Below the pieces are notes generated by a model that worked only from the letters and a program-made list of their open reading frames with translations, searched no databases and had not been told where the DNA came from. Below are positions 761-28,112 of a DNA stretch of 64,000 nt, one piece after another. The stretch covers positions 3,744,001 to 3,808,000 of the forward strand of contig OZ242029.1 in NCBI GenBank assembly GCA_965205015.1. The letters are read 5' to 3'. The position numbers were made by a program, and so were the translations under genes. Position 1 is the first letter of the stretch; each line of letters opens with the position of its first letter. The DNA comes from Candidatus Poribacteria bacterium. GTDB lineage: Bacteria; Poribacteria; WGA-4E; WGA-3G.

Positions 761-3545
761 CACATTCCCTACGAACGGGAAGGTGTATCCAAAGTGGATC
801 ATCGTTGACCGGTTTCGGAGGTAAATATTGGTTTCAATTCCCTACGAGTGGGAAGGTGTATCCAAAGCGAATACATTATGCGGACTTAATAGTAAGAATT
901 AATTCGTTTCAATTCCCTACGAGTGGGAAGGTGTATCCAAAGCATTATCAGAAGTGGAGTTTATCCAGAATGATGTGTTTCAATTCCCTACGAACGGGAA
1001 GGTGTATCCAAAGCATTCAAGGATGGCGATGAGGTCCGAAGGATAGAAAGAGTTTCAATTCCCTACGAGCGGGAAGGTGTATCCAAAGTGTTGGTGTGTC
1101 GGAAAGTGTCTCTGATATGGAGATACAGTTTCAATTCCCTACGAGCGGGAAGGTGTATCCAAAGCCTAATCCTCTATTGCCACGACAACAACATCGAATT
1201 CAGTTTCAATTCCCTACGAGCGGGAAGGTGTATCCAAAGCAAAAACTTCACAACGGGGCAGTTATTGAGAATTATTTTGTTTCAATTCCCTACGAGCGGG
1301 AAGGTGTATCCAAAGCAAATACAGGATGTGGCACAGGGCAGACAACCAATGTTTCAATTCCCTACGAGCGGGAAGGTGTATCCAAAGTAAGTATCGTGGC
1401 GGACAGCAGTGGTATTACTTGTTTCAATTCCCTACGAGCGGGAAGGTGTATCCAAAGTTAAAAACGCAGACGCAGGAAGTCAATGAAAAATCCAGTTTCA
1501 ATTCCCTACGAGCGGGAAGGTGTATCCAAAGTTGCCAACAGGACATCACAGCCCTCGGTAAACACATGTTTCAATTCCCTACGAGCGGGAAGGTGTATCC
1601 AAAGGCGATGTGCTTCTCAGGTTAGCGATTGAGCCAGTGTTTCAATTCCCTACGAGCGGGAAGGTGTATCCAAAGAAACAATGAAAGCAATACCGTCATC
1701 GCGGTTGGAAAGCTGTTTCAATTCCCTACGAGCGGGAAGGTGTATCCAAAGAATAAGATTGGAGATTGCGCTGCAAGGGCATTTACGTTTCAATTCCCTA
1801 CGAGCGGGAAGGTGTATCCAAAGCTTGCTATCGACGCTACCGTCTCCATTGACATCATGTTTCAATTCCCTACGAGCGGGAAGGTGTATCCAAAGATACC
1901 GAAGTCCTAACAGTTGGCCTTGACTATCCAGTCCAGTTTCAATTCCCTACGAGCGGGAAGGTGTATCCAAAGCCGATCGACATCTCGGAGCAGATCGCAC
2001 CGCTCTTTGAGTTTCAATTCCCTACGAGCGGGAAGGTGTATCCAAAGGAGCCGTAGAAGGGTACAAAGACGCGATTGTCTACGTTTCAATTCCCTACGAG
2101 CGGGAAGGTGTATCCAAAGTCTCAAGCAAGCGGGCTCAACGGCGTGCAGATTGGAAAAAGTTTCAATTCCCTACGAGCGGGAAGGTGTATCCAAAGATAG
2201 GTTGAAGGGTGTACCTTAAAAAACCCTTATGTGTAGGAGTTTCAATTCCCTACGAGCGGGAAGGTGTATCCAAAAATGTTGGCTCACCGTGCAATGACCG
2301 ATGACACCCACTTGTTTCAATTCCCTACGAGCGGGAAGGTGTATCCAAAGATTTATATCTAATTTTTGCCGAACTCTTAGCATTTGAGTTTCAATTCCCT
2401 ACGAGCGGGAAGGTGTATCCAAAGGAATTAAAAAAAGCACCAACTCAGCCAAAATTCTTGTTTCAATTCCCTACGAGCGGGAAGGTGTATCCAAAGCACT
2501 GTCAAAGAGGTGGAGGTTTTACCTTACTATCGGTTTCAATTCCCTACGAGCGGGAAGGTGTATCCAAAGCTTTTTCATTCCTCTGTTGGAGGAAACCATG
2601 AAAAAGGGTTTCAATTCCCTACGAGCGGGAAGGTGTATCCAAAGATCTGAACATGGTGAGGAAGGGTGTTCAAGTCCTGAATGTGGGTTTCAATTCCCTA
2701 CGAGCGGGAAGGTGTATCCAAAGGGGATAAGTATCAGGATAACATCAAGAAACAGGAAATGGTTTCAATTCCCTACGAGCGGGAAGGTGTATCCAAAGGT
2801 GAACCATGATGATGAATTCGCCCTTTCGTGGGCAAACAGTTTCAATTCCCTACGAGCGGGAAGGTGTATCCAAAGACGAGATCGATGACTCTGATGACGA
2901 TGCGGATGACGCTGAGAGTTTCAATTCCCTACGAGCGGGAAGGTGTATCCAAAGATGGCAACCGACATACTAACAGGCATGAACGCAGAGTTTCAATTCC
3001 CTACGAGCGGGAAGGTGTATCCAAAGGCACTCGTCGTCGGTTCTTCATCAATAAACCAGTGCTGTGTTTCAATTCCCTACGAGCGGGAAGGTGTATCCAA
3101 AGAAGACCTTGACACAACCTTAATGGCAGTCACAGCAAGTTTCAATTCCCTACGAGCGGGAAGGTGTATCCAAAGTAGGCGTGAATTGTGCGTGTATCCG
3201 CTCGATGTTACCTGTGTTTCAATTCCCTACGAGCGGGAAGGTGTATCCAAAGATGGCATGTCTGACGACTTGCATGAGACGGATGAGTTTCAATTCCCTA
3301 CGAGCGGGAAGGTGTATCCAAAGTTTTGACAGCGAAACGCACGAGGATCGGCTTGAAGTTTCAATTCCCTACGAGCGGGAAGGTGTATCCAAAGTGAAGA
3401 TTGGGCAGCGGCACGGGAACAGTTTAGCAAGTTGAGTTTCAATTCCCTACGAGCGGGAAGGTGTATCCAAAGTTACATGTTCAGAACATTCACACATCGT
3501 TGTTCGAGGTTTCAATTCCCTACGAGCGGGAAGGTGTATCCAAAG
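758..3545 (-). CRISPR. CRISPR array, 38 repeats / 37 spacers of about 33-42 nt; repeat (minus strand) CTTTGGATACACCTTCCCGCTCGTAGGGAATTGAAAC
   Basis: 37-bp repeat counted from 758/764 to 3509-3545. TTCCC/GGGAA hairpin and ATTGAAAC 3' end on the minus strand. Variant repeats are concentrated at the 758-1013 (trailer) end; the leader lies at the 3545 side. Confidence 0.98.
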
Positions 3546-3808
3546 AGACCCTATTTTGCACCCAGTCGGGGCGTGGCTCCGGATACCCCAAAACCAAACG
3601 CGAACTGCGCGGGGCTTTTTTTGCGCAAAAATTTCTCCCTAAAATCCCACGAACCCTTATGAACATTGACCCAAACGCGATTTTTCAACAAAAAAGGTTC
3701 GGAAGCAAGGCACTATCTATGTTCTTGGGCAATTTGTGTGGCATTCCCCCCTGATAGGGGAATCGCGTTTGTTTTTATAAGTATACGCGAAATTTGTTAA
3801 AATGTCAA
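3546..3808 (-). promoter_or_regulatory. CRISPR leader with sigma70 promoter
   Basis: Minus strand TTGACA (3808-3803), 17 nt, TATACT (3785-3780), pointing into the array; non-coding with A/T tracts. Confidence 0.75.
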
Positions 3809-3835
3809 GAAAAAATTTATCCAGAGTTTTCAGAA

Positions 3836-3863
3836 GTCGGGATTCGGAGATCCCGCCTCCCAG
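3836..3863 (+). repeat. REP-like hairpin (GTCGGGATTCGGAGATCCC..CCT(A/C)CAG family)
   Basis: Similar to 4944-4970 and to the interrupted copy at 8067-8112. Confidence 0.55.
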
Positions 3864-4112
3864 AGTTCCAAACGTTCTTCACCTGTTTTGAACCCACGTT
3901 GCTACTTACAGGATTTTCGCTGTGAATCTGCATTTTTGTATCGTTTCCCGTGCGTTTTCGGACGCACAGGAAACCCAGACGCACAGTCTATGCTACAAAG
4001 ATGGCATCTCGCGTTATTTTGCTTGACACGAATTGATTTCTCATCTATTTTATTGTTAGTTTTCAGTTATCGGTGAGTGGTTGCAAAACTGGACGAGGGA
4101 GGTTATACATAG

Positions 4113-4910
4113 ATGGGAATTTTATCGAAGGATCAGCGTAAACAGTGGAGGACAGAGGGATACTTCGTTTTGAAAGGGGTGCTCTCTCCTGAAGAAGTCC
4201 AAGCGTTGAGAGCAACAGTAGACGCAATGGATGCGGCGTTTCGGAAAGGTGAGAATGTCACCGCCGATTCCCTTTTTGACAAGCGGAATGTGATGGAAGA
4301 CAACGATATTTTCGTTGATCTGATGGACCATCCCGTGACGTTTCCGATTGTGCGGGAGTTGTTGGGCGACTACATCCAGCTGAGTATGTCGGAGGTGATC
4401 GTGCGTCCGCCGAACCCGAAAGACCAAGGGTATCTGCACACGGACGGCGGTCAAGCGATGCGAACCATTCGGGTCAGCAAATCGAGTTCACCGCTACAAG
4501 TGAAAATCCATTATTTTTTAACAGATCTTGAGGATCCCGATAGTGGTAACTTCACTGTTGTGCCGGGAAGCCATAATCGGACGTTTCCAGAGACGGGTGT
4601 CAAGGATGGTCCCTATATCCCTGAAGCCGTGCAGTTATGTGTGAAAGCAGGGGATGCCGCCGTTTTTCCGCATGCGTTATGGCATGGGGTTGTCGCCAAC
4701 CGCTCGGAACAAGCCCGAAAAACGCTTATCTACTGCTACAGCCATCACTGCTTCCGTCCGTTTGACTACGAAAAAGCGTCCCCCGAACTGATGGAGCGAT
4801 GCACGCCACGTCAGCGCAGGTTAATCGGGGACATCGGGGATTGGAGACCGGGATCTTATTTTTATTCGCCGGGTGATCAGGAAAAGTTAATCAGTGGGTT
4901 GGAAGAATAG
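4113..4910 (+). CDS. phytanoyl-CoA dioxygenase (PhyH) family 2OG-Fe(II) oxygenase
   Basis: HTD...WHG facial triad, GNFTVVPGSH, AGDAAVF motifs; GGAGG RBS. Confidence 0.9.
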   Translation: MGILSKDQRKQWRTEGYFVLKGVLSPEEVQALRATVDAMDAAFRKGENVTADSLFDKRNVMEDNDIFVDLMDHPVTFPIVRELLGDYIQLSMSEVIVRPPNPKDQGYLHTDGGQAMRTIRVSKSSSPLQVKIHYFLTDLEDPDSGNFTVVPGSHNRTFPETGVKDGPYIPEAVQLCVKAGDAAVFPHALWHGVVANRSEQARKTLIYCYSHHCFRPFDYEKASPELMERCTPRQRRLIGDIGDWRPGSYFYSPGDQEKLISGLEE

Positions 4911-4911
4911 C

Positions 4912-5080
4912 ACTCAGCGATTAGCAGTCGGCTATCAGTAAGAGTCAGGAAACGGAGTTCCGTCCTACAGGAATGATGTTGGTTGTATTGAGTGGAATTG
5001 GGAACGCTAACGGGCTTAGGACGCAAACTAACAGTTTGCGCTACAAGACGGTCGGGAAACAGGGGGTAGGCCTACAGCAG
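4912..5080. repeat. cluster of REP-like elements between convergent genes
   Basis: Heptamer tract 4912-4940; GTCAGGAAACGGAGTTCCGTCCTACAG at 4944-4970; CGCAAAC-TAACA-GTTTGCG-CTAC at about 5022-5044; another CCTAC-ended unit at about 5050-5077. Confidence 0.6.
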
Positions 5081-19301: not shown

Positions 19302-20276
19302 ATGACACAAGCCCCGGAACATCCGGCAGCGAGCAACCGACAGCAATACGATACTGTTTCAAAAGTCCTCATTCGTCAAAATCCCGACGACTGGGTCCGA
19401 TTTAGCCTCGGTATCCCAGATGCTATAGTGGTAAAGGTGCTTGAAAGTGAGCAGCCGACGGTCACATCTAACCGGGCAGATAGTTTCATACACGTGAAGG
19501 TTCGTGGCCAGGACCTCATTGTGCATTTAGAGATGCAGACGCACGACAGCACAGACGTGCCGATGCCCCGAAGGATGGCGGGTTATGTCGGTCGGGCGAT
19601 CGAATTCTTCGGGCTTCCGGTCCACTCACACGTTATCTATCTGCATCCGAGAGCTGGCAGCAGAGATCCCGGTGAATATAGGCAAAAGGTGCCGGGGTAT
19701 GAGATTCGCGTTCAGTATAAGGTTATCCGGCTGTGCGATTTAGAAGGCGAAGTGTTTCTATCATCTGGGATGAAGGGATTAATCCCGTTCACACCGTTGA
19801 TGAAACCTCCGATAGGTATGCCTTCAAACGACTGGCTTCGGGAATGTGTTCGGGTTGCGGAGTCTGTGCCGCAGGACGTGCCTGCAAAGGCGGATTATTT
19901 ATCAGATGTAGCGATTTTGAGCGGTTTAATATTTGATTATCCAACCATTCGTGAAACGATACGGGAGGCAATCATGCACGAATCATCAGTTATCCAACAT
20001 TTCTTGCAACAAGGCATAGAACAAGGCATAGAACAAGGCATAGAACAAGGCATAGAACAAGGCATAGAACAAGGGACGCGAAAAAGTCTTATTGAGAGTA
20101 TCCTCGAAAACTTGGAAATCCGTTTCAAGGTCTCCAACTTGCCAGTCGTGCGCGCAACGCTTGGAGATGTTGAAACGTTGCAGCAGCTGCGGCAATTGCG
20201 TCGCGAATCTCTGCAAGCACCGAGCCTTGATGCGTTCCGACAGGCTTTGGTTCGAAGCGTTAGCACCGGGGACTAA
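19302..20276 (+). CDS. Rpn family recombination-promoting nuclease / PD-(D/E)XK protein
   Basis: YD..SK, RADS, HLEMQT...MPRRM..Y motifs; C-terminal (GIEQ)n repeat and helical tail. Confidence 0.88.
   Translation: MTQAPEHPAASNRQQYDTVSKVLIRQNPDDWVRFSLGIPDAIVVKVLESEQPTVTSNRADSFIHVKVRGQDLIVHLEMQTHDSTDVPMPRRMAGYVGRAIEFFGLPVHSHVIYLHPRAGSRDPGEYRQKVPGYEIRVQYKVIRLCDLEGEVFLSSGMKGLIPFTPLMKPPIGMPSNDWLRECVRVAESVPQDVPAKADYLSDVAILSGLIFDYPTIRETIREAIMHESSVIQHFLQQGIEQGIEQGIEQGIEQGIEQGTRKSLIESILENLEIRFKVSNLPVVRATLGDVETLQQLRQLRRESLQAPSLDAFRQALVRSVSTGD
20010..20075 (+). repeat. 12-bp coding tandem repeat (CAAGGCATAGAA) x5.5
   Basis: Five perfect units plus a partial one, encoding QGIE. Confidence 0.95.
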
Positions 20277-23010: not shown

Positions 23011-23091
23011 TCGCTTCTTGACCGCTTTTCACTGGGGGAGGGGTTTGTAACCCCGATTCTCTTGGAAAAACGAATTAAAAGGGGCACGCAA

Positions 23092-24399
23092 TTGAATCGT
23101 TTAAAAATCTCTGTTTTCATATTAATATTGTGTTTGATGACGGTAAACGTGGCGGGTGCGGAATGGCTGCTGATACCGATGGAGATCGGTGCACAGACGA
23201 ACCACCTCAAGGCTTACGGGCTGACGTATTGGGCATTAGAGGTTCCGCGAGAGTACCGATGCTACTGGTGGCTGAACTATCGTGGGGGCGCGTTCGTCCT
23301 ACCCGACTCGCAAGACGTGCGGATACGCGCGGCGTTGATGGGGGTGCGCTTTGAACCGATAAACCACGCCGATTACCTCAGTATAAAGGAATCTGTTCTC
23401 GAAGGTAGCAACATGGACGAGATTCTCTTGGAGAAAGCTCCCAAAATCGCTGTGTATGCGCCATCAGAGGCATCGCCCTATCGGGATCCTTGGGACGACG
23501 CGGTCAAAATCGCCTTGGATTACGCACAGATTCCGTACGACGAAATCTGGGACAAAGAGGTCCAAAACGGCGTGTTAGAAATAGAGGGATACGACTGGCT
23601 ACATCTCCACCACGAGGACTTTACAGGTCAGCACGGCAAGTTCCACGCCGCATTTTCCACACAGGTCTGGTATCAGCAGCGGATGCTGATGTTTGAAAAA
23701 GCTGCCACAGCAGCAGGATTCCAACGGGTGGCGCGGCATAAAGGGCAGACGGCACAGATGATCTCAGACTATATCGTCAATGGTGGGTTTATTTTCGCCA
23801 TGTGTTCTGCCCCAGAAACCCTTGACATTGCTCTGGCGACACACGGTGGCGCAATCGATATCGTTGCGCCTGAATTGGATGGGACCCCGATTGATTCGGA
23901 TGCCCAGACGCGGCTCGACTTTCAGCGTACTTTGGCGTTTGAAAAATTTAGCCTTTACACGAACCCATACCGATACGAATTCTCGGACATAGACAACCCG
24001 AATCCTGATCGGGATGCCCAGAGCGGGGTCGAGGATTTCAAGCTCTTTGAGTTTGCCGCAAAGCACGACCCGATCCCAACGATGCTCACGCAGAATCACG
24101 TAAGTGTCGTGCCGGGGTATCTCGGACAGACGACATCGTTTAATATGGACAAGATTCGTGGCTCTGTCACCATCTTAGGGCAGGTGGAAGGTAGCAACTA
24201 CGCAAAATACATCCACGGCAAATTAGGGAAGGGAACCTTTACGTTCCTCGGTGGACACGATCCGGAGGATTACCGTCATCTTGTCGGTGAGGGAAAAATA
24301 CCGACGAATCTTGATCTGCACAAACATTCCCCCGGTTACAGGTTAATCCTGAATAATATCCTATTTCCGGCGGCGCGAAAGAAACCGCAGAAGACGTGA
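23092..24399 (+). CDS. secreted conserved protein with class I glutamine amidotransferase-like region (homologs often labelled asparagine synthetase B)
   Basis: LIPM..QTNHLKAYG, WDDAV, YDWLHLHHEDFTGQ, FAMCSA, GGHDPEDY, SPGYRLILNN, C-terminal AxKKxQKT; TTG start 23092 (ORF track 23062). Confidence 0.65.
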   Translation: MNRLKISVFILILCLMTVNVAGAEWLLIPMEIGAQTNHLKAYGLTYWALEVPREYRCYWWLNYRGGAFVLPDSQDVRIRAALMGVRFEPINHADYLSIKESVLEGSNMDEILLEKAPKIAVYAPSEASPYRDPWDDAVKIALDYAQIPYDEIWDKEVQNGVLEIEGYDWLHLHHEDFTGQHGKFHAAFSTQVWYQQRMLMFEKAATAAGFQRVARHKGQTAQMISDYIVNGGFIFAMCSAPETLDIALATHGGAIDIVAPELDGTPIDSDAQTRLDFQRTLAFEKFSLYTNPYRYEFSDIDNPNPDRDAQSGVEDFKLFEFAAKHDPIPTMLTQNHVSVVPGYLGQTTSFNMDKIRGSVTILGQVEGSNYAKYIHGKLGKGTFTFLGGHDPEDYRHLVGEGKIPTNLDLHKHSPGYRLILNNILFPAARKKPQKT

Positions 24400-24420
24400 G
24401 AATGGTTATCGGTAAAAAAA

Positions 24421-26514
24421 ATGAAAACAGTTCTCGCAACGTGCAACCTGAATCAATGGAGTCTTGATTTTGAAGGGAACACGGCGCGCATCATTGAATC
24501 CATAGAAATTGCGAAAGAAGGTGGTGCTCGGTATCGGTTGGGACCGGAATTGGAGATTACGGGGTACTCCTGCGAAGACCATTTTCTGGAATTGGACACA
24601 CTTCTGCACAGTTGGGAATCACTGGCATGCATCCTTAAAAGCGGACGGACAGATGACATTCTGTGTGACATTGGGATGCCTGTTATGCATAAAAACGTCC
24701 GGTATAACTGTCGGGTTTTCGTATTAGATGGCAAGCTTCTGTTAATTCGTCCGAAGATGGTCTTGGCGAGCGATGGTAATTATCGTGAACATCGTTGGTT
24801 TACAGCATGGGAACGGGGGTGGACCACTGAACCGTATACACTTCCGCGCGAGATTGCCGAACTGACCGGACAGCGGGCGGTACCCATCGGCATCGCGGCG
24901 ATTGCCACCGCGGACACATGTTTGGCATCGGAGACCTGTGAGGAACTCTTTGTGCCGATGAGTCCACACATCCACTTCGGTAATGCGGGTGTCGAAATCA
25001 TAGCGAACGGATCAGGTTCTCACCACGAGTTACGGAAATTAGACACGCGCATCGCACTCATCAGAAACGCAAGTGCCAAAAACGGTGGGGTTTATCTCTA
25101 TGCCAACCAGCAGGGCTGCGATGGGGGTAGACTCTATTTCGACGGTTGTGCGCTGATCGCCCAGAATGGCGAGATTTTAGCGCAGGGTTCCCAATTCTCG
25201 CTCAAAGACGTAGAGGTCGTCACGGCGACGGTGGACCTCCACGACGTACGGGCATATCGTGGCGCGAAGGCGAGTCGGGCTGTACAGGCGAGCAAAATGG
25301 AACCCTTGCCACAGATAGATATTGACTTTGATTTTGGACCTGCGCACGGGAATAGGGTCCTGAACGTGAATCCAAAAATCGAGCCGCATACGCACGAACC
25401 CGAGGAAGAGATCGCCTTGGGTCCCGCCTGTTGGCTCTGGGATTATCTACGCAGATCGGGTGCGGCGGGGTATTTCATCCCGCTTTCAGGGGGTGCTGAC
25501 AGTGGTGCCGTTGCAACGCTTGTCGGTTCAATGTGTCAATTGGTGGCGAAAGCGATACGCGACACGGATGCCACGGTAATTCGCGATGTCGCGCGATGGC
25601 TGGACGCCGGTGAACCTCCGGACCTTTTCACGGATCCGCGCGTGCTTGCCAATCGGCTATTGTATACGTGCTACATCGGGACAGAGAATAGTTCTCGCGA
25701 CACCCAAAAACGCGCGAGGCAGCTTGCGGAACAGATCGGTGCCTATCATCTCAACATCAATATGGATGGACTCGTCAATGCACTGCAGAAGCTCTTTACC
25801 CGTATTACGCGGAAGACCCCTCGATTTAAGGTTGAGGGTGGTAGTTATAGAGAGAATCAGGCGCTTCAGAACATACAGGCACGGTTGCGGATGGTGCTGA
25901 GTTACCTGTTCGCGCAGATGATGCCGTGGGTGCGGAATCGGGAAGGCACGCTCCTCGTACTGGGGACGGGTAATGTTGATGAGGCATTGCGAGGTTACTT
26001 GACAAAATATGATTGCAGCAGCGGGGACATCAACCCGATCGGTGGGATTAGCAAACACGACTTACGCCGATTCCTGAATTGGGCTAAAGGTAACCTCGGT
26101 TATACGGTGCTCTCGGAAATTGTTGATGCACCACCGACAGCAGAACTGGAACCGATAACCGAAACCTATACGCAAACCGATGAAGATGATATGGGGATGA
26201 CTTACGCCGAATTGAGCCGTTTCGGTCAACTCCGAAAAATGGAGCAGTGCGGTCCTGTCAGTATGTTTGAAAAATTGGTACAGGAATGGGACCATCTGCC
26301 ACCGCACGAGGTTGCCGAGAAGGTCAAACGGTTCTTTAGGTACTACTCCATCAATCGACACAAAATGACGACGCTAACACCCTCCTATCATGCTGAATCT
26401 TATTCACCAGACGACAATCGCTTTGACCTGCGGCAGTTCCTCTACAATGTCCAATGGACGTGGCAGTTCAGACGTATCGATGCCTATGTTAAGAAGTTGG
26501 AGGCGGAGGTGTGA
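24421..26514 (+). CDS. nadE: glutamine-dependent NAD+ synthetase, eukaryotic (NADSYN1/QNS1) type
   Basis: Nitrilase-like domain with E (GPELE), K (RPK), C (TCEEL) triad; LSGGADS; QNIQARLRM. Confidence 0.95.
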
Positions 26515-28112
26515 TGCAGCTGACTTCACAAAACAAAAAGGGAGAGATGGAAGGATGGAAGGATGGAAGAAAGGTGTCCCCAATTTTCCACCCTTCCACC
26601 CTTCCAATCTTTCTCTTGGCGTTCATGGTTATGCTGAGCACGGCGTTCGGGGCACCCGATGTTCCGTTGAATTTAGATGGTTGGGTGGCTGAGGCACTCG
26701 CGAAGTTGGAAACCGATGGTATCACAGGTGGGTTCCATCGACACACGGCACCGCTTTCAAGAGCAGACGTGGCAGCGGCGATACGACAGGCTGAATCGCG
26801 CATTCGCAGCGACGGTGTCGTTCTGTCAACGATAGATCGGAAACTCTTAGAAAAATTGAAACGGGAATTCGCGAAAGAACTCAGGGTTCACGACGGAGGG
26901 CGGATGCGATTCCTGCCACAACTTCGGATGATTGAAGAAAAAGCGGCTCCGGCGTTTGAATGGGGATTTCACTATACACTTGGGCAACTCGAAAAACGAG
27001 AAGCACCGCGTCTAACCCTCTACTCTGAATTTGAGGGACATAACTTTGAGAGTCCACCCCTGGACGGGAAGACAGCGGGTCAACGCCTTGAACGCTGGCG
27101 TGGAGACTACACTGGCGACTTCAAGAGAGGGTATCTCCAGGTCAATAGCGTACACCTCGATCTACTTGTCGGTAGAGATTGGCTTTTCTGGGGTGCGAGT
27201 CCATACAAAACGGTCGGCATCTCCGATCACTCGCCACCGTTTGACCAGGTCCGACTCACCAGTAGACTCGGAAAACGACTCAAGGCGACGGCTTTCACGG
27301 CACAACTCGATTCAACGTGGTACGATGATGGAGAAAAACGCTATCTCGCGAAACGTTATATCAGCGGACATCGACTCGATTACCAATTCAACGATCGCGT
27401 GGAAATCGGTGTTGCGGAGTGGATACTTTACGGTGGCGATGCCCAGACGCTTGAATGGAAATATGCAAACCCGATCACCCTCTATTATGCGCTACAATAT
27501 AATGCCAAAGCGGACGACAACGTTATGTTCGCCCTTGATGCGGCGATCCGACCGATTGATGGGGTGCGTTTGTATGGTGAATGGGTCATTGACGATATCC
27601 AATACGTTCCCGGTGCGAACGATCCACATGCAGTGGCGTGGCTTTTAGGGGCGACTTGGTATCCGCAATACTTGGGTCGGCACCTCGGAATTCACAGCGA
27701 ATACGCACGCGTCAACCGGTGGGCTTACACGCATTTGGTGCCGGATAATCAGTTCACACACTTCGGCTACGCAATCGGACATCCAATCAGCACGGATTCG
27801 GATACAGTCCGATTTTCAGCCACCTATCAATTGACTGTCTCCGTCGATGCAGAGATTGGCGCTGCGTTCACCCGGCAGGGAGAAGGCACAATCGCAGATC
27901 GGTTTTATGGGGAAGACTTCAGGGGGCTTCCCTTTCCGACGGGTGTTGTTGCAAGAACAACAGAAATTGGTGGGCGGTTCTCCTATCGTCCATTGAATGG
28001 ATGGAATGCCTCGTTCTTATACGTATGGCACTACACGCAGAATGCTGAGCATCGTAAAGGGATGACGCACCAAGAGCATCGGCTGGCGATTCAGATGGGG
28101 TATCTGTTTTAA
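26511..28112 (+). CDS. capsule assembly Wzi-family outer membrane beta-barrel
   Basis: [37 protein letters not shown]-terminal GYLF. Confidence 0.78.
26543..26614. repeat. octamer-armed palindrome within the 5' end of the wzi-like ORF
   Basis: (GATGGAAG)x3 ... (TTCCACCC)x2-3 inverted arms. Confidence 0.7.

Follow-up and report, generated by a model that had tools for sequence, protein, structure and literature searches.

The gene nadE occupies positions 24421-26514 of the forward strand in a 64,000-nucleotide stretch of a Candidatus Poribacteria chromosome (contig OZ242029.1, positions 3,744,001 to 3,808,000; the window, hereafter), and it encodes a two-domain glutamine-dependent NAD+ synthetase of the eukaryotic rather than the bacterial type, resembling NADSYN1 of animals and Qns1 of yeast. 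Comparison of the protein with its relatives gives good support to an ancient inter-domain transfer in which a native NadE was displaced, and the direction from eukaryote to bacterium is the one that we mildly favour. Taken as a whole, the account that we prefer, which combines the predicted function, the role in the cell, an ancient transfer, the replacement of the native enzyme and a eukaryotic source, has in our estimate a probability of about 0.55.

According to this account, the ancestor of most present-day Poribacteria would have gained the gene by ancient inter-domain transfer, from a deep-branching or unsampled eukaryotic lineage near the split between opisthokonts (Amorphea) and the red, green and other groups. 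The acquired gene would have displaced the native bacterial NadE, a case of xenologous replacement, and, once in place, would have been inherited, mostly within the same conserved stretch of the chromosome, and handed on to a few Chloroflexi. Public records call the gene only 'NAD(+) synthase', and literature searches that combined Poribacteria with NAD synthase or nadE, and NADSYN1 with horizontal transfer, returned no description of this case.

A eukaryote-type NAD+ synthetase

The gene is a single uninterrupted open reading frame (ORF) of 697 amino acids that ends in a TGA stop at 26512-26514. A preliminary description of this DNA, made from its letters alone, had called it an intronless gene for a eukaryotic NADSYN1/QNS1-like enzyme, and the frame, its lack of interruptions and all four peptide segments quoted there are present as described. 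The features of the gene are as follows.

24421-26514, forward: nadE, eukaryote-type (NADSYN1/Qns1-like) two-domain glutamine-dependent NAD+ synthetase, 697 amino acids plus stop, assigned from its Pfam domains, its match to 6ofb_A and scores below the bacterial equivalog cut-offs
24433-25260, forward: N-terminal nitrilase-superfamily glutaminase domain (CN_hydrolase), residues 5-280 (Pfam PF00795, 134 bits, E 5.9e-39)
24547-24549, forward: Glu43, catalytic acid/base (human Glu45; role from PMC6946656), in a column invariant in 55 of 55 aligned rows
24754-24756, forward: Lys112, catalytic lysine (human Lys114; role from PMC6946656 and the 55-row alignment)
24781-24789, forward: 'YRE loop' Tyr121-Arg122-Glu123, with Tyr121 (human Tyr123) of the eukaryotic type and Glu123 (human Glu125) the second catalytic glutamate
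24937-24942, forward: nucleophile Cys173 and adjoining Glu174 (human Cys175 and Glu176; roles from PMC6946656 and the 55-row alignment)
25021-25023, forward: His201, eukaryote-type residue of the tunnel constriction (human His203; Pro in prokaryotic enzymes; PMC6946656 and the 55-row alignment)
25432-26229, forward: C-terminal NAD synthase domain (PP-loop ATP pyrophosphatase), residues 338-603 (PF02540, 97.9 bits, E 6.5e-28)
25486-25503, forward: PP-loop SGGADS, residues 356-361, with S, G, G, D and S invariant in 55 of 55 rows

Among solved structures the best match is chain 6ofb_A, which is human NADSYN1 (hsNadE; Chuenchor et al. 2020, PMC6946656), at 920 bits (E 5.9e-276), with residues 2-694 aligned to 5-696 across four small gaps. 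The runner-up, 3ilv_A, is the best bacterial chain at 227 bits, and chains of the Mycobacterium tuberculosis type (3dla, 6ofc) reach 85-89 bits. The equivalog models of bacterial NadE tell the same story, with the window protein scoring 153.2 bits with NF002730 (PRK02628; cut-off 473), 128.8 with NF010588 (PRK13981; cut-off 479) and, for the single-domain ammonia-dependent forms, 78.7 with NF010587 (PRK13980; cut-off 255) and 61.7 with NF001979 (PRK00768; cut-off 250). The domain-level model of the synthetase, TIGR00552, is passed at 95.3 bits (domain cut-off 63.65). Because the score with 6ofb_A is so high and every bacterial equivalog model is missed by so wide a margin, the label eukaryote-type, proposed in the preliminary description from signature segments of the family, is a measured property of this protein and not an impression. 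With NF002730 the window protein (153 bits) scores much as the Branchiostoma enzyme does (156 bits).

In the human enzyme, catalysis is attributed to Cys175, Glu45, Lys114 and a second glutamate, Glu125, and the first constriction of the ammonia tunnel is formed by Tyr123 and His203, conserved in eukaryotes, where prokaryotes conserve Phe and Pro (PMC6946656). In an alignment of 55 rows, the Tyr and His pair is found in all 20 bacterial eukaryote-type copies, in contrast to native bacterial NadE, which has Phe at the first position (10/10) and Pro (5) or Asn (5) at the second. The pair is not absolute in eukaryotes, as one of 11 animals has Phe and four have Tyr in place of His.

From these domains and residues, the window gene is predicted to specify a functional NAD+ synthetase of the eukaryotic subfamily (EC 6.3.5.1). 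By analogy with the family, the nitrilase-type domain would hydrolyse glutamine by means of Cys173, Glu43 and Lys112 (with Glu123), the ammonia released would be channelled by an internal tunnel to the C-terminal PP-loop domain, and this domain would adenylate nicotinic acid adenine dinucleotide (NaAD) and then amidate it to NAD+. For the enzymes on which this analogy draws, a homo-octamer has been described in both human and M. tuberculosis, the ammonia tunnel differs between the two, the human enzyme discriminates poorly between glutamine and ammonia, and M. tuberculosis, unlike humans, cannot do without its NadE (PMC6946656).

Role in NAD biosynthesis

The gene appears to be the only nadE of its carriers. 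In four closed Poribacteria chromosomes (G001-G004) it is the sole strong match to PF02540 in every case, and of the weaker matches the two that were classified (one each in G001 and G004) are LarE; a weak match classified in a Chloroflexota genome that also carries the gene, from the Anaerolineae, is an asparagine synthase. The same four chromosomes encode NadD and NadC above cut-off, together with a full-length NadA-like protein that scores 234-238 bits with TIGR00550, under its cut-off of 262.9, and is predicted to be a divergent NadA. The eukaryote-type NadE would thus finish a bacterial route, by way of NadA-like protein, NadC and NadD, to NaAD. Because the four genomes are predicted to make NaAD and hold no other strong match, their cells would need a NadE, for which the eukaryote-type enzyme is the only candidate.

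Distribution among bacteria

A scan of one genome per prokaryotic species, which leaves room for the gene in further bacterial phyla, yielded 120 relatives, of which the best 80 were examined. Seventy-three of these 80 are titled Candidatus or uncultured Poribacteria, with 66-95% identity to the window protein and many of them in closed chromosomes of 4.6-7 Mb; four are titled 'uncultured bacterium', and three are Chloroflexota at 66-69% identity. Within the Poribacteria phylum to which G001 belongs, the eukaryote-type gene is present in 157 of 175 genomes (E <= 1e-221; most copies full-length, 66-95% identical). Another 16 of the 175 genomes give weak matches only (E 1e-4 to 1e-17) and two give none.

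Five of the 16 weak-match genomes were inspected, and all five have a canonical bacterial NadE (PF02540). The ORFs classified from G006, G009 and G013 score 742-750 bits with PRK13981 (cut-off 479) or 327-335 with PRK13980 (cut-off 255). Ordinary bacterial forms of NadE are therefore part of this phylum, and the eukaryote type appears to replace them in the majority of its members. A single gain in a subclade of Poribacteria may account for this pattern.

Among the Chloroflexota, the gene is found in one of 401 sampled genomes, the Anaerolineae genome itself, and the native NadE of the others (580-790 amino acids) reaches only 58-97 bits with the window protein. The Chloroflexota copies are nested among those of Poribacteria in all trees, which suggests that the few Chloroflexi acquired them by secondary transfer from Poribacteria-like donors. 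The first-branching bacterial copies come from in-phylum genomes (G063, G066-G068).

A related observation concerns the loci L099 and L136, whose group (G063, G064, G066-G068) comprises the earliest-branching copies, 693-696 amino acids long, and may include the oldest carriers of the gene; the L136 locus, at least, has a low GC content of 0.40, against about 0.50 for the window.

Eukaryotic relatives

In a library of 1.84 billion representatives clustered at 50% identity, the best match to the window protein is only 59% identical (P0121, animal-type). Nine of 30 representatives looked up had organism names, and the named members of the matched clusters are all eukaryotes: red algae (Chondrus, Pyropia, Gracilaria, Galdieria, Cyanidioschyzon and Rhodosorus), many animals, an ascomycete, a ciliate, a gregarine and lupin. 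A metagenome scan added 80 loci, and the long contigs inspected are eukaryotic by their neighbours, which carry JmjC, WW, ARID, Lipin, TFIIH-Ssl1, Spt5, GNT-I and PDI domains. Three intron-poor groups of metagenome loci were designated 'green-like' (with lupin), 'yeast-like' (with the ascomycete) and 'third' (a protist group), labels drawn only from the domains of neighbouring genes and from tree position. Some loci of the scan fall in the bacterial clade, such as L133, which has a bacterial context.

By mean identity in the 55-row alignment, the bacterial eukaryote-type copies are 58% identical to Metazoa, 59% to Rhodophyta and 23% to native bacterial NadE, while Metazoa and Rhodophyta are 53% identical to each other and eukaryotes 22-23% identical to native bacterial NadE. 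The bacterial copies are on average 71% identical among themselves and 65-67% identical to the 'green-like' picoeukaryote group. The eukaryotic groups thus resemble the bacterial clade more than they resemble each other, which means that this clade has a short branch.

Several sequences drew attention in the course of these searches. P0242, P0247, P0270, P0178 and others were considered as bacterial intermediates and rejected, their scores with bacterial models being no better than those of true eukaryotes; P0242 itself prefers 6ofb (302 bits) over 3ilv (88 bits). The P0124 cluster was likewise set aside as a candidate second prokaryotic lineage, the metagenome scan having given no contig of that cluster (best match 56% identical) and the long contigs inspected being eukaryotic. 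In a FastTree tree, the eukaryote-type NadE of the metagenome contig L163 (5.9 kb; match at 2543-4803) is long-branched and comes off at the very base of the bacterial clade; its identity is 64% to L051 and 60% to the window protein. Its match is possibly interrupted, falling on ORFs at 2179-2649 and 2845-4959, and as its neighbours have no Pfam matches it was assigned neither a bacterial nor a eukaryotic origin; it could be a key intermediate lineage. P0384, a eukprot entry from Galdieria phlegrea of 1088 amino acids, has PF00347 and PF01467 ahead of its NAD synthetase domains; PF01467 (CTP_transf_like) is the fold of NMN/NaMN adenylyltransferases, and the entry represents a fusion that joins enzymes for consecutive steps of the NAD pathway, or else a merged gene model. 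Invertebrate NADSYN1 models are often 800-1250 amino acids long, well above the usual 700 or so, one of them with PF00641 (zf-RanBP), and may have C-terminal extensions or be merged models.

Phylogenetic position of the bacterial clade

Trees were built from three sets of sequences: 55 rows, 60 rows with long-branch taxa, and 56 rows cleaned of long branches by dropping Blepharisma, Lankesteria, Durotheca and Pyropia. The densely sampled FastTree tree was restricted to representatives of 640-830 amino acids (62 of 150), and the tree of metagenome loci to ORFs of at least 640 amino acids, without L183, which has no intact ORF; L163 was omitted from later trees. The most careful tree was computed for the 56 rows with IQ-TREE under LG+C20+F+G4 with posterior mean site frequencies (PMSF), at a log-likelihood (lnL) of -41380.4.

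Two results recur throughout. The bacterial eukaryote-type copies always form one clade, with 95-99 in the Shimodaira-Hasegawa-like approximate likelihood ratio test (SH-aLRT) and 100/98 in the careful tree, and a stem supported at 100/100, about 8.8 substitutions per site long (range 8-10), parts native bacterial NadE from the eukaryotes and this bacterial clade together. The window protein is thus far from lying inside a broad clade of bacterial NadE, an outcome that the preliminary description had named as fatal to its proposal. The comparison with Bacteroidota that it also envisaged was made in part, through the single chain 3ilv_A (227 bits).

Within the eukaryotic part, the careful rooted tree joins Bacteria to Opisthokonta (98/95) and recovers Fungi with Metazoa (100/98) and Metazoa alone (100/100). 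When only the ingroup is used, every group is monophyletic and the bacteria join between Opisthokonta (98) and the red, green and third groups (89). Attachment of the bacterial clade to the deepest split among the sampled eukaryotes is therefore robust in these trees as long as they are left unrooted. The bacterial stem measures 0.07-0.12 (0.12 in the ingroup-only tree) against a crown depth of 0.26-0.61, the metazoan stem measures 0.26-0.27, and eukaryotic paths from the bacterial junction are about 0.7-1.3, by subtraction of path lengths in the ingroup-only tree.

Two narrower affinities did not hold up. The bacterial clade grouped with red algae in two dense trees (FastTree 86; SH-aLRT 83) but in none of five other trees, and the finding that the best matches of a red-algal query outside the red algae are bacterial is explained by the short bacterial branch. 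A green-algal donor was suggested by the metagenome group with 65-67% identity; this group forms a clade with the land plant to the exclusion of the bacteria (96-98), and its higher identity is due to short branches.

Origin and direction of the transfer

Several observations lean towards a transfer from eukaryote to bacterium. The type is present in every sampled eukaryotic group and in one clade only of bacteria; genomes of the same phylum carry an ordinary NadE; the bacterial copies share the whole of the long eukaryotic stem and are no nearer than eukaryotes to bacterial NadE; in the careful rooted tree the bacteria sit among the eukaryotes, as the sister of Opisthokonta (98/95); and one dataset, that of 60 rows with long-branch taxa, marginally rejects the monophyly of all eukaryotes in the approximately unbiased (AU) test, the constrained tree being 7.18 lnL worse (p-AU 0.039). 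On the assumption of roughly constant rates the event looks old, because the stem is short against a deep crown, amelioration is full and gene order is conserved.

A number of points weigh against a eukaryotic source. The outgroup root moves from tree to tree, to red algae in some and to the ciliate in others, and is not trustworthy, because the long outgroup stem attaches to any eukaryote with a long branch or an odd composition and so leaves the root unplaceable. The one rejection of eukaryote monophyly (p 0.039) is gone once the four long-branch rows are removed. With 55 rows, the tree constrained to make all eukaryotes monophyletic is 0.85 lnL better than the free tree (p-AU 0.53), and with 56 rows it is 17.4 better than the quick free tree (p-AU 0.83), which by our arithmetic places it about 0.2 lnL below the careful maximum-likelihood tree. 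The branch between Opisthokonta and the rest is one of the commonly proposed positions of the eukaryotic root. Because the bacteria attach on that very branch, the trees agree equally well with a nested position and with one beside all the eukaryotes sampled, as their sister. Furthermore, the eukaryotic rows are without named Amoebozoa, Discoba, Metamonada, sponges and choanoflagellates, and three of their groups bear the indirect labels described above.

These points bring to the fore the strongest competing explanation, which we nevertheless hold to be unlikely: that NAD synthetase of the eukaryotic form has a bacterial origin, and that the clade of Poribacteria and Chloroflexi stems from, or took the gene from, the lineage which passed it to the ancestor of eukaryotes, so that its true place is as sister to every eukaryotic NADSYN1. 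It would account for the monophyly tests, in which the constrained tree is as good or better in two of three datasets, for the attachment to the deepest internal branch of the ingroup-only tree, and for a short-stemmed clade roughly equidistant from the eukaryotic groups (58% and 59%, against 53% between these). A bacterial origin of the eukaryotic enzyme is moreover accepted in principle, since De Ingeniis et al. (2012, PMC3376133) derive the eukaryotic branch from the bacterial two-domain branch (97% bootstrap); the passages on which we draw make no mention of bacteria inside the eukaryotic branch, though the full trees of that paper might show such. In bacteria, however, the type has been found only in the majority clade of one phylum and sporadically in Chloroflexi, and because the five checked genomes of the same phylum have ordinary NadE, even this scenario has Poribacteria acquiring the gene from some bacterial lineage as yet unseen. 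The copies in bacteria form one monophyletic group instead of a paraphyletic one around eukaryotes, their diversity (71% mean identity) is below that of the eukaryotic sequences, and they are in no way intermediate towards other bacterial NadE (23%, against 22-23% for eukaryotes). Their rootward position could itself be an artefact, slow-evolving sequences being drawn towards the root, and to this are added the marginal rejection in one dataset (p 0.039) and the nesting with Opisthokonta (98/95). The fuller version, in which these enzymes are a surviving bacterial sister lineage of all eukaryotic NADSYN1 and descend from, or were received from, the bacteria to which the last eukaryotic common ancestor owed its NAD synthetase, seems to us a shade more doubtful again.

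The preliminary description had left precisely two possibilities, transfer from eukaryote to bacterium or a bacterial sister or donor of the eukaryotic clade, and it is these two that remain. Its further suggestion that a host-associated life makes such a transfer plausible gains no specific support, and a recent capture, in which Poribacteria already living as sponge symbionts took the gene from a sponge or another animal host, is quite improbable. The organism does occur with sponges, as run X4, a 'sponge metagenome', contains 0.96 of the sampled words; the top single match among the 50%-identity representatives is animal-type (P0121, 59%); and a grouping of Bacteria with Metazoa is not rejected in two AU tests (p 0.49 and p 0.50), with rows that lack a sponge sequence. 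The second of these values, however, says little, as the quick tree that served as its baseline is a poor optimum, about 17.6 lnL short of the careful tree. A sponge donor should place the bacteria inside Metazoa, but both Metazoa (100/100) and Fungi with Metazoa (100/98) exclude them, and no part of the long metazoan stem (0.26-0.27) is common to them. The bacterial copies are no more similar to animals (58%) than they are to red algae (59%) or the 'green-like' group (65-67%), and a crown of 0.26-0.61 over a stem of 0.12, amelioration, and gene order conserved at loci whose NadE is 67-74% identical all speak for an old event.

The locus and its integrity

The surroundings of nadE are bacterial, with genes for a Wzi-like protein, an SLT lytic transglycosylase and a CcmC-type cytochrome c assembly protein (Pfam). 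The features flanking nadE are as follows.

23062-24399, forward: conserved gene of 445 amino acids directly 5' of nadE, no Pfam family; upstream in 57 of 80 loci at 70-97% identity
26511-28112, forward: Wzi-like outer-membrane protein ORF, PF14052 on residues 197-520; downstream in 60 of 80 loci
26538-26617, forward: repeat-built hairpin right after the nadE stop, free energy -55.9 kcal/mol, z -5.0, none of 200 shuffles as stable

Gene order (880-residue protein, 445-residue protein, nadE, Wzi-like, SLT) is conserved in most of the 80 loci, the gene for the 880-residue protein being present in 56, that for the 445-residue protein in 57, the Wzi-like gene in 60 and the SLT gene in 47, and this neighbourhood extends to closed chromosomes and to loci whose NadE is only 67-74% identical. 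None of the three Chloroflexota loci has the Poribacteria order. The 445-residue protein carries a hydrophobic segment at its N terminus, and its conservation (70-97%) exceeds that of the remaining neighbours. Its closest clusters in the ESM Atlas (0.97) are bacterial and without Pfam families, two of the top three being automatically named 'asparagine synthetase B', and weaker neighbours there (about 0.8) bear BPL_N/GATase-like domains.

In composition nadE is typical of the window. Its GC content is 0.523, and that of its third codon positions 0.568, where the 23 ORFs of at least 300 amino acids in the window have 0.502+-0.022 and 0.520+-0.046; its relative synonymous codon usage correlates with that of the pooled ORFs at 0.646 (mean 0.639), 11 of 22 other ORFs being lower. 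Furthermore, contigs without a mismatch span both junctions of nadE in two DNA runs from different studies, one of them a 'sponge metagenome' (run X4, 24204-25710 and 26232-26762; run X2, 24204-24527 and 26308-27199). The preliminary description had judged contamination unlikely from the lack of introns, the composition and the overlapping stop, and had wanted read continuity verified; because codon usage matches, gene order is conserved in dozens of assemblies and contigs from two studies bridge the junctions, contamination or a chimeric join is now excluded. That host eukaryotic DNA was mis-binned or mis-assembled into a bacterial contig, an idea which draws on the metagenome-type source and on the host DNA present in sponge samples, thus has a negligible probability, given that dozens of independent assemblies, closed 5-7 Mb chromosomes among them, show the gene amid the same bacterial neighbours, and given the zero-mismatch contigs across both junctions, bacterial codon usage, an uninterrupted ORF, and its place as the only NadE in four closed genomes predicted to make NaAD.

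The 3' end of the gene calls for a correction. The overlap between the nadE stop and the next start, from which the preliminary description had read an operon, exists literally at the level of ORFs, as the downstream ORF could start at GTG 26511 or ATG 26514. The hairpin at 26538-26617, however, consists of GGAAGGATGGAAGG-type (GGAAGG-type) repeats and their complement (5 matches against 0.55 expected). Read depth spikes at the hairpin in runs X2 and X4 (in X2 from about 465 to about 1575), and a number of contigs stop or diverge there and leave loose ends; the hairpin is probably a terminator or a multi-copy element like the repetitive extragenic palindromic (REP) sequences. Because the hairpin occupies this interval, and because similarity of the Wzi-like protein in other loci starts only tens of bases past the end of nadE, the true start of the downstream gene is probably later than 26511 and the overlap an artefact of ORF calling. 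Operon coupling of the two genes is accordingly doubtful.

In two metatranscriptome libraries, X17 and X19, contigs at 90-95% likeness cover 23 of 30 and 20 of 30 bins; these come from relatives and may include carried-over DNA, and are only a hint of expression. Elsewhere in the window, a 324-residue ORF at 19302-20276 (forward), without a Pfam match at E <= 0.01, contains five perfect copies of the repeat GIEQ, (GIEQ)x5, around residue 240.

Significance and comparison with known systems

NAD synthetase is an essential housekeeping enzyme, and cross-domain swaps of such enzymes are rare; here, in a candidate phylum of sponge symbionts, the eukaryotic form would have replaced the bacterial one in 157 of 175 genomes and persisted over a very long span. 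Whichever the direction of transfer, a slow-evolving clade at the deepest sampled split gives studies of how eukaryotic NADSYN1 evolved early on, and possibly of how it arose, one more useful lineage, and the bacterial protein may offer an easily expressed stand-in for the eukaryotic enzyme. Should the clade be a bacterial sister after all, it would be the first close bacterial relative (57-67% identity, against about 23%) of a eukaryotic 'signature' core enzyme, and could help to tell which bacteria had a part in eukaryogenesis.

The system most like the window enzyme is human NADSYN1 (6OFB), with which it shares both domains, colinearity over the full length, the C-E-K(+E) catalytic residues, the YRE loop, the PP-loop and the equivalents of the Tyr and His pair. 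It differs in its setting, a bacterial chromosome and a neighbourhood of envelope genes, and its mean identity to the animal enzymes is about 58%. Yeast Qns1 belongs to the same subfamily, and fungal rows fall within the eukaryote-type clade, but fungi are more divergent from the window protein, at 49% mean identity (for which one named ascomycete was available).

The bacterial two-domain enzymes (3DLA, 3SYT and 6OFC of PRK02628; PRK13981) agree with it in reaction, domain order, catalytic residues and PP-loop, and differ in overall sequence (about 23% identity, 85-89 bits) and in having Phe with Pro or Asn at the tunnel constriction; such forms are found in the genomes of the Poribacteria phylum that lack the eukaryote type and in other Chloroflexota. 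The closest solved bacterial relative is the NadE of Cytophaga hutchinsonii (3ILV; organism as named in PMC3376133), which aligns over both domains at 227 bits yet is far more distant from the window protein than is any eukaryotic sequence. Finally, Poribacteria have been reported to carry phosphopantothenate enzymes of the archaeal type (PMC7883664), so that the eukaryote-type NadE would be the second reported enzyme of a Poribacteria cofactor pathway that is typical of another domain; the two cases are alike in this respect, and differ in that the earlier one concerns the coenzyme A pathway and has Archaea as the donor domain.

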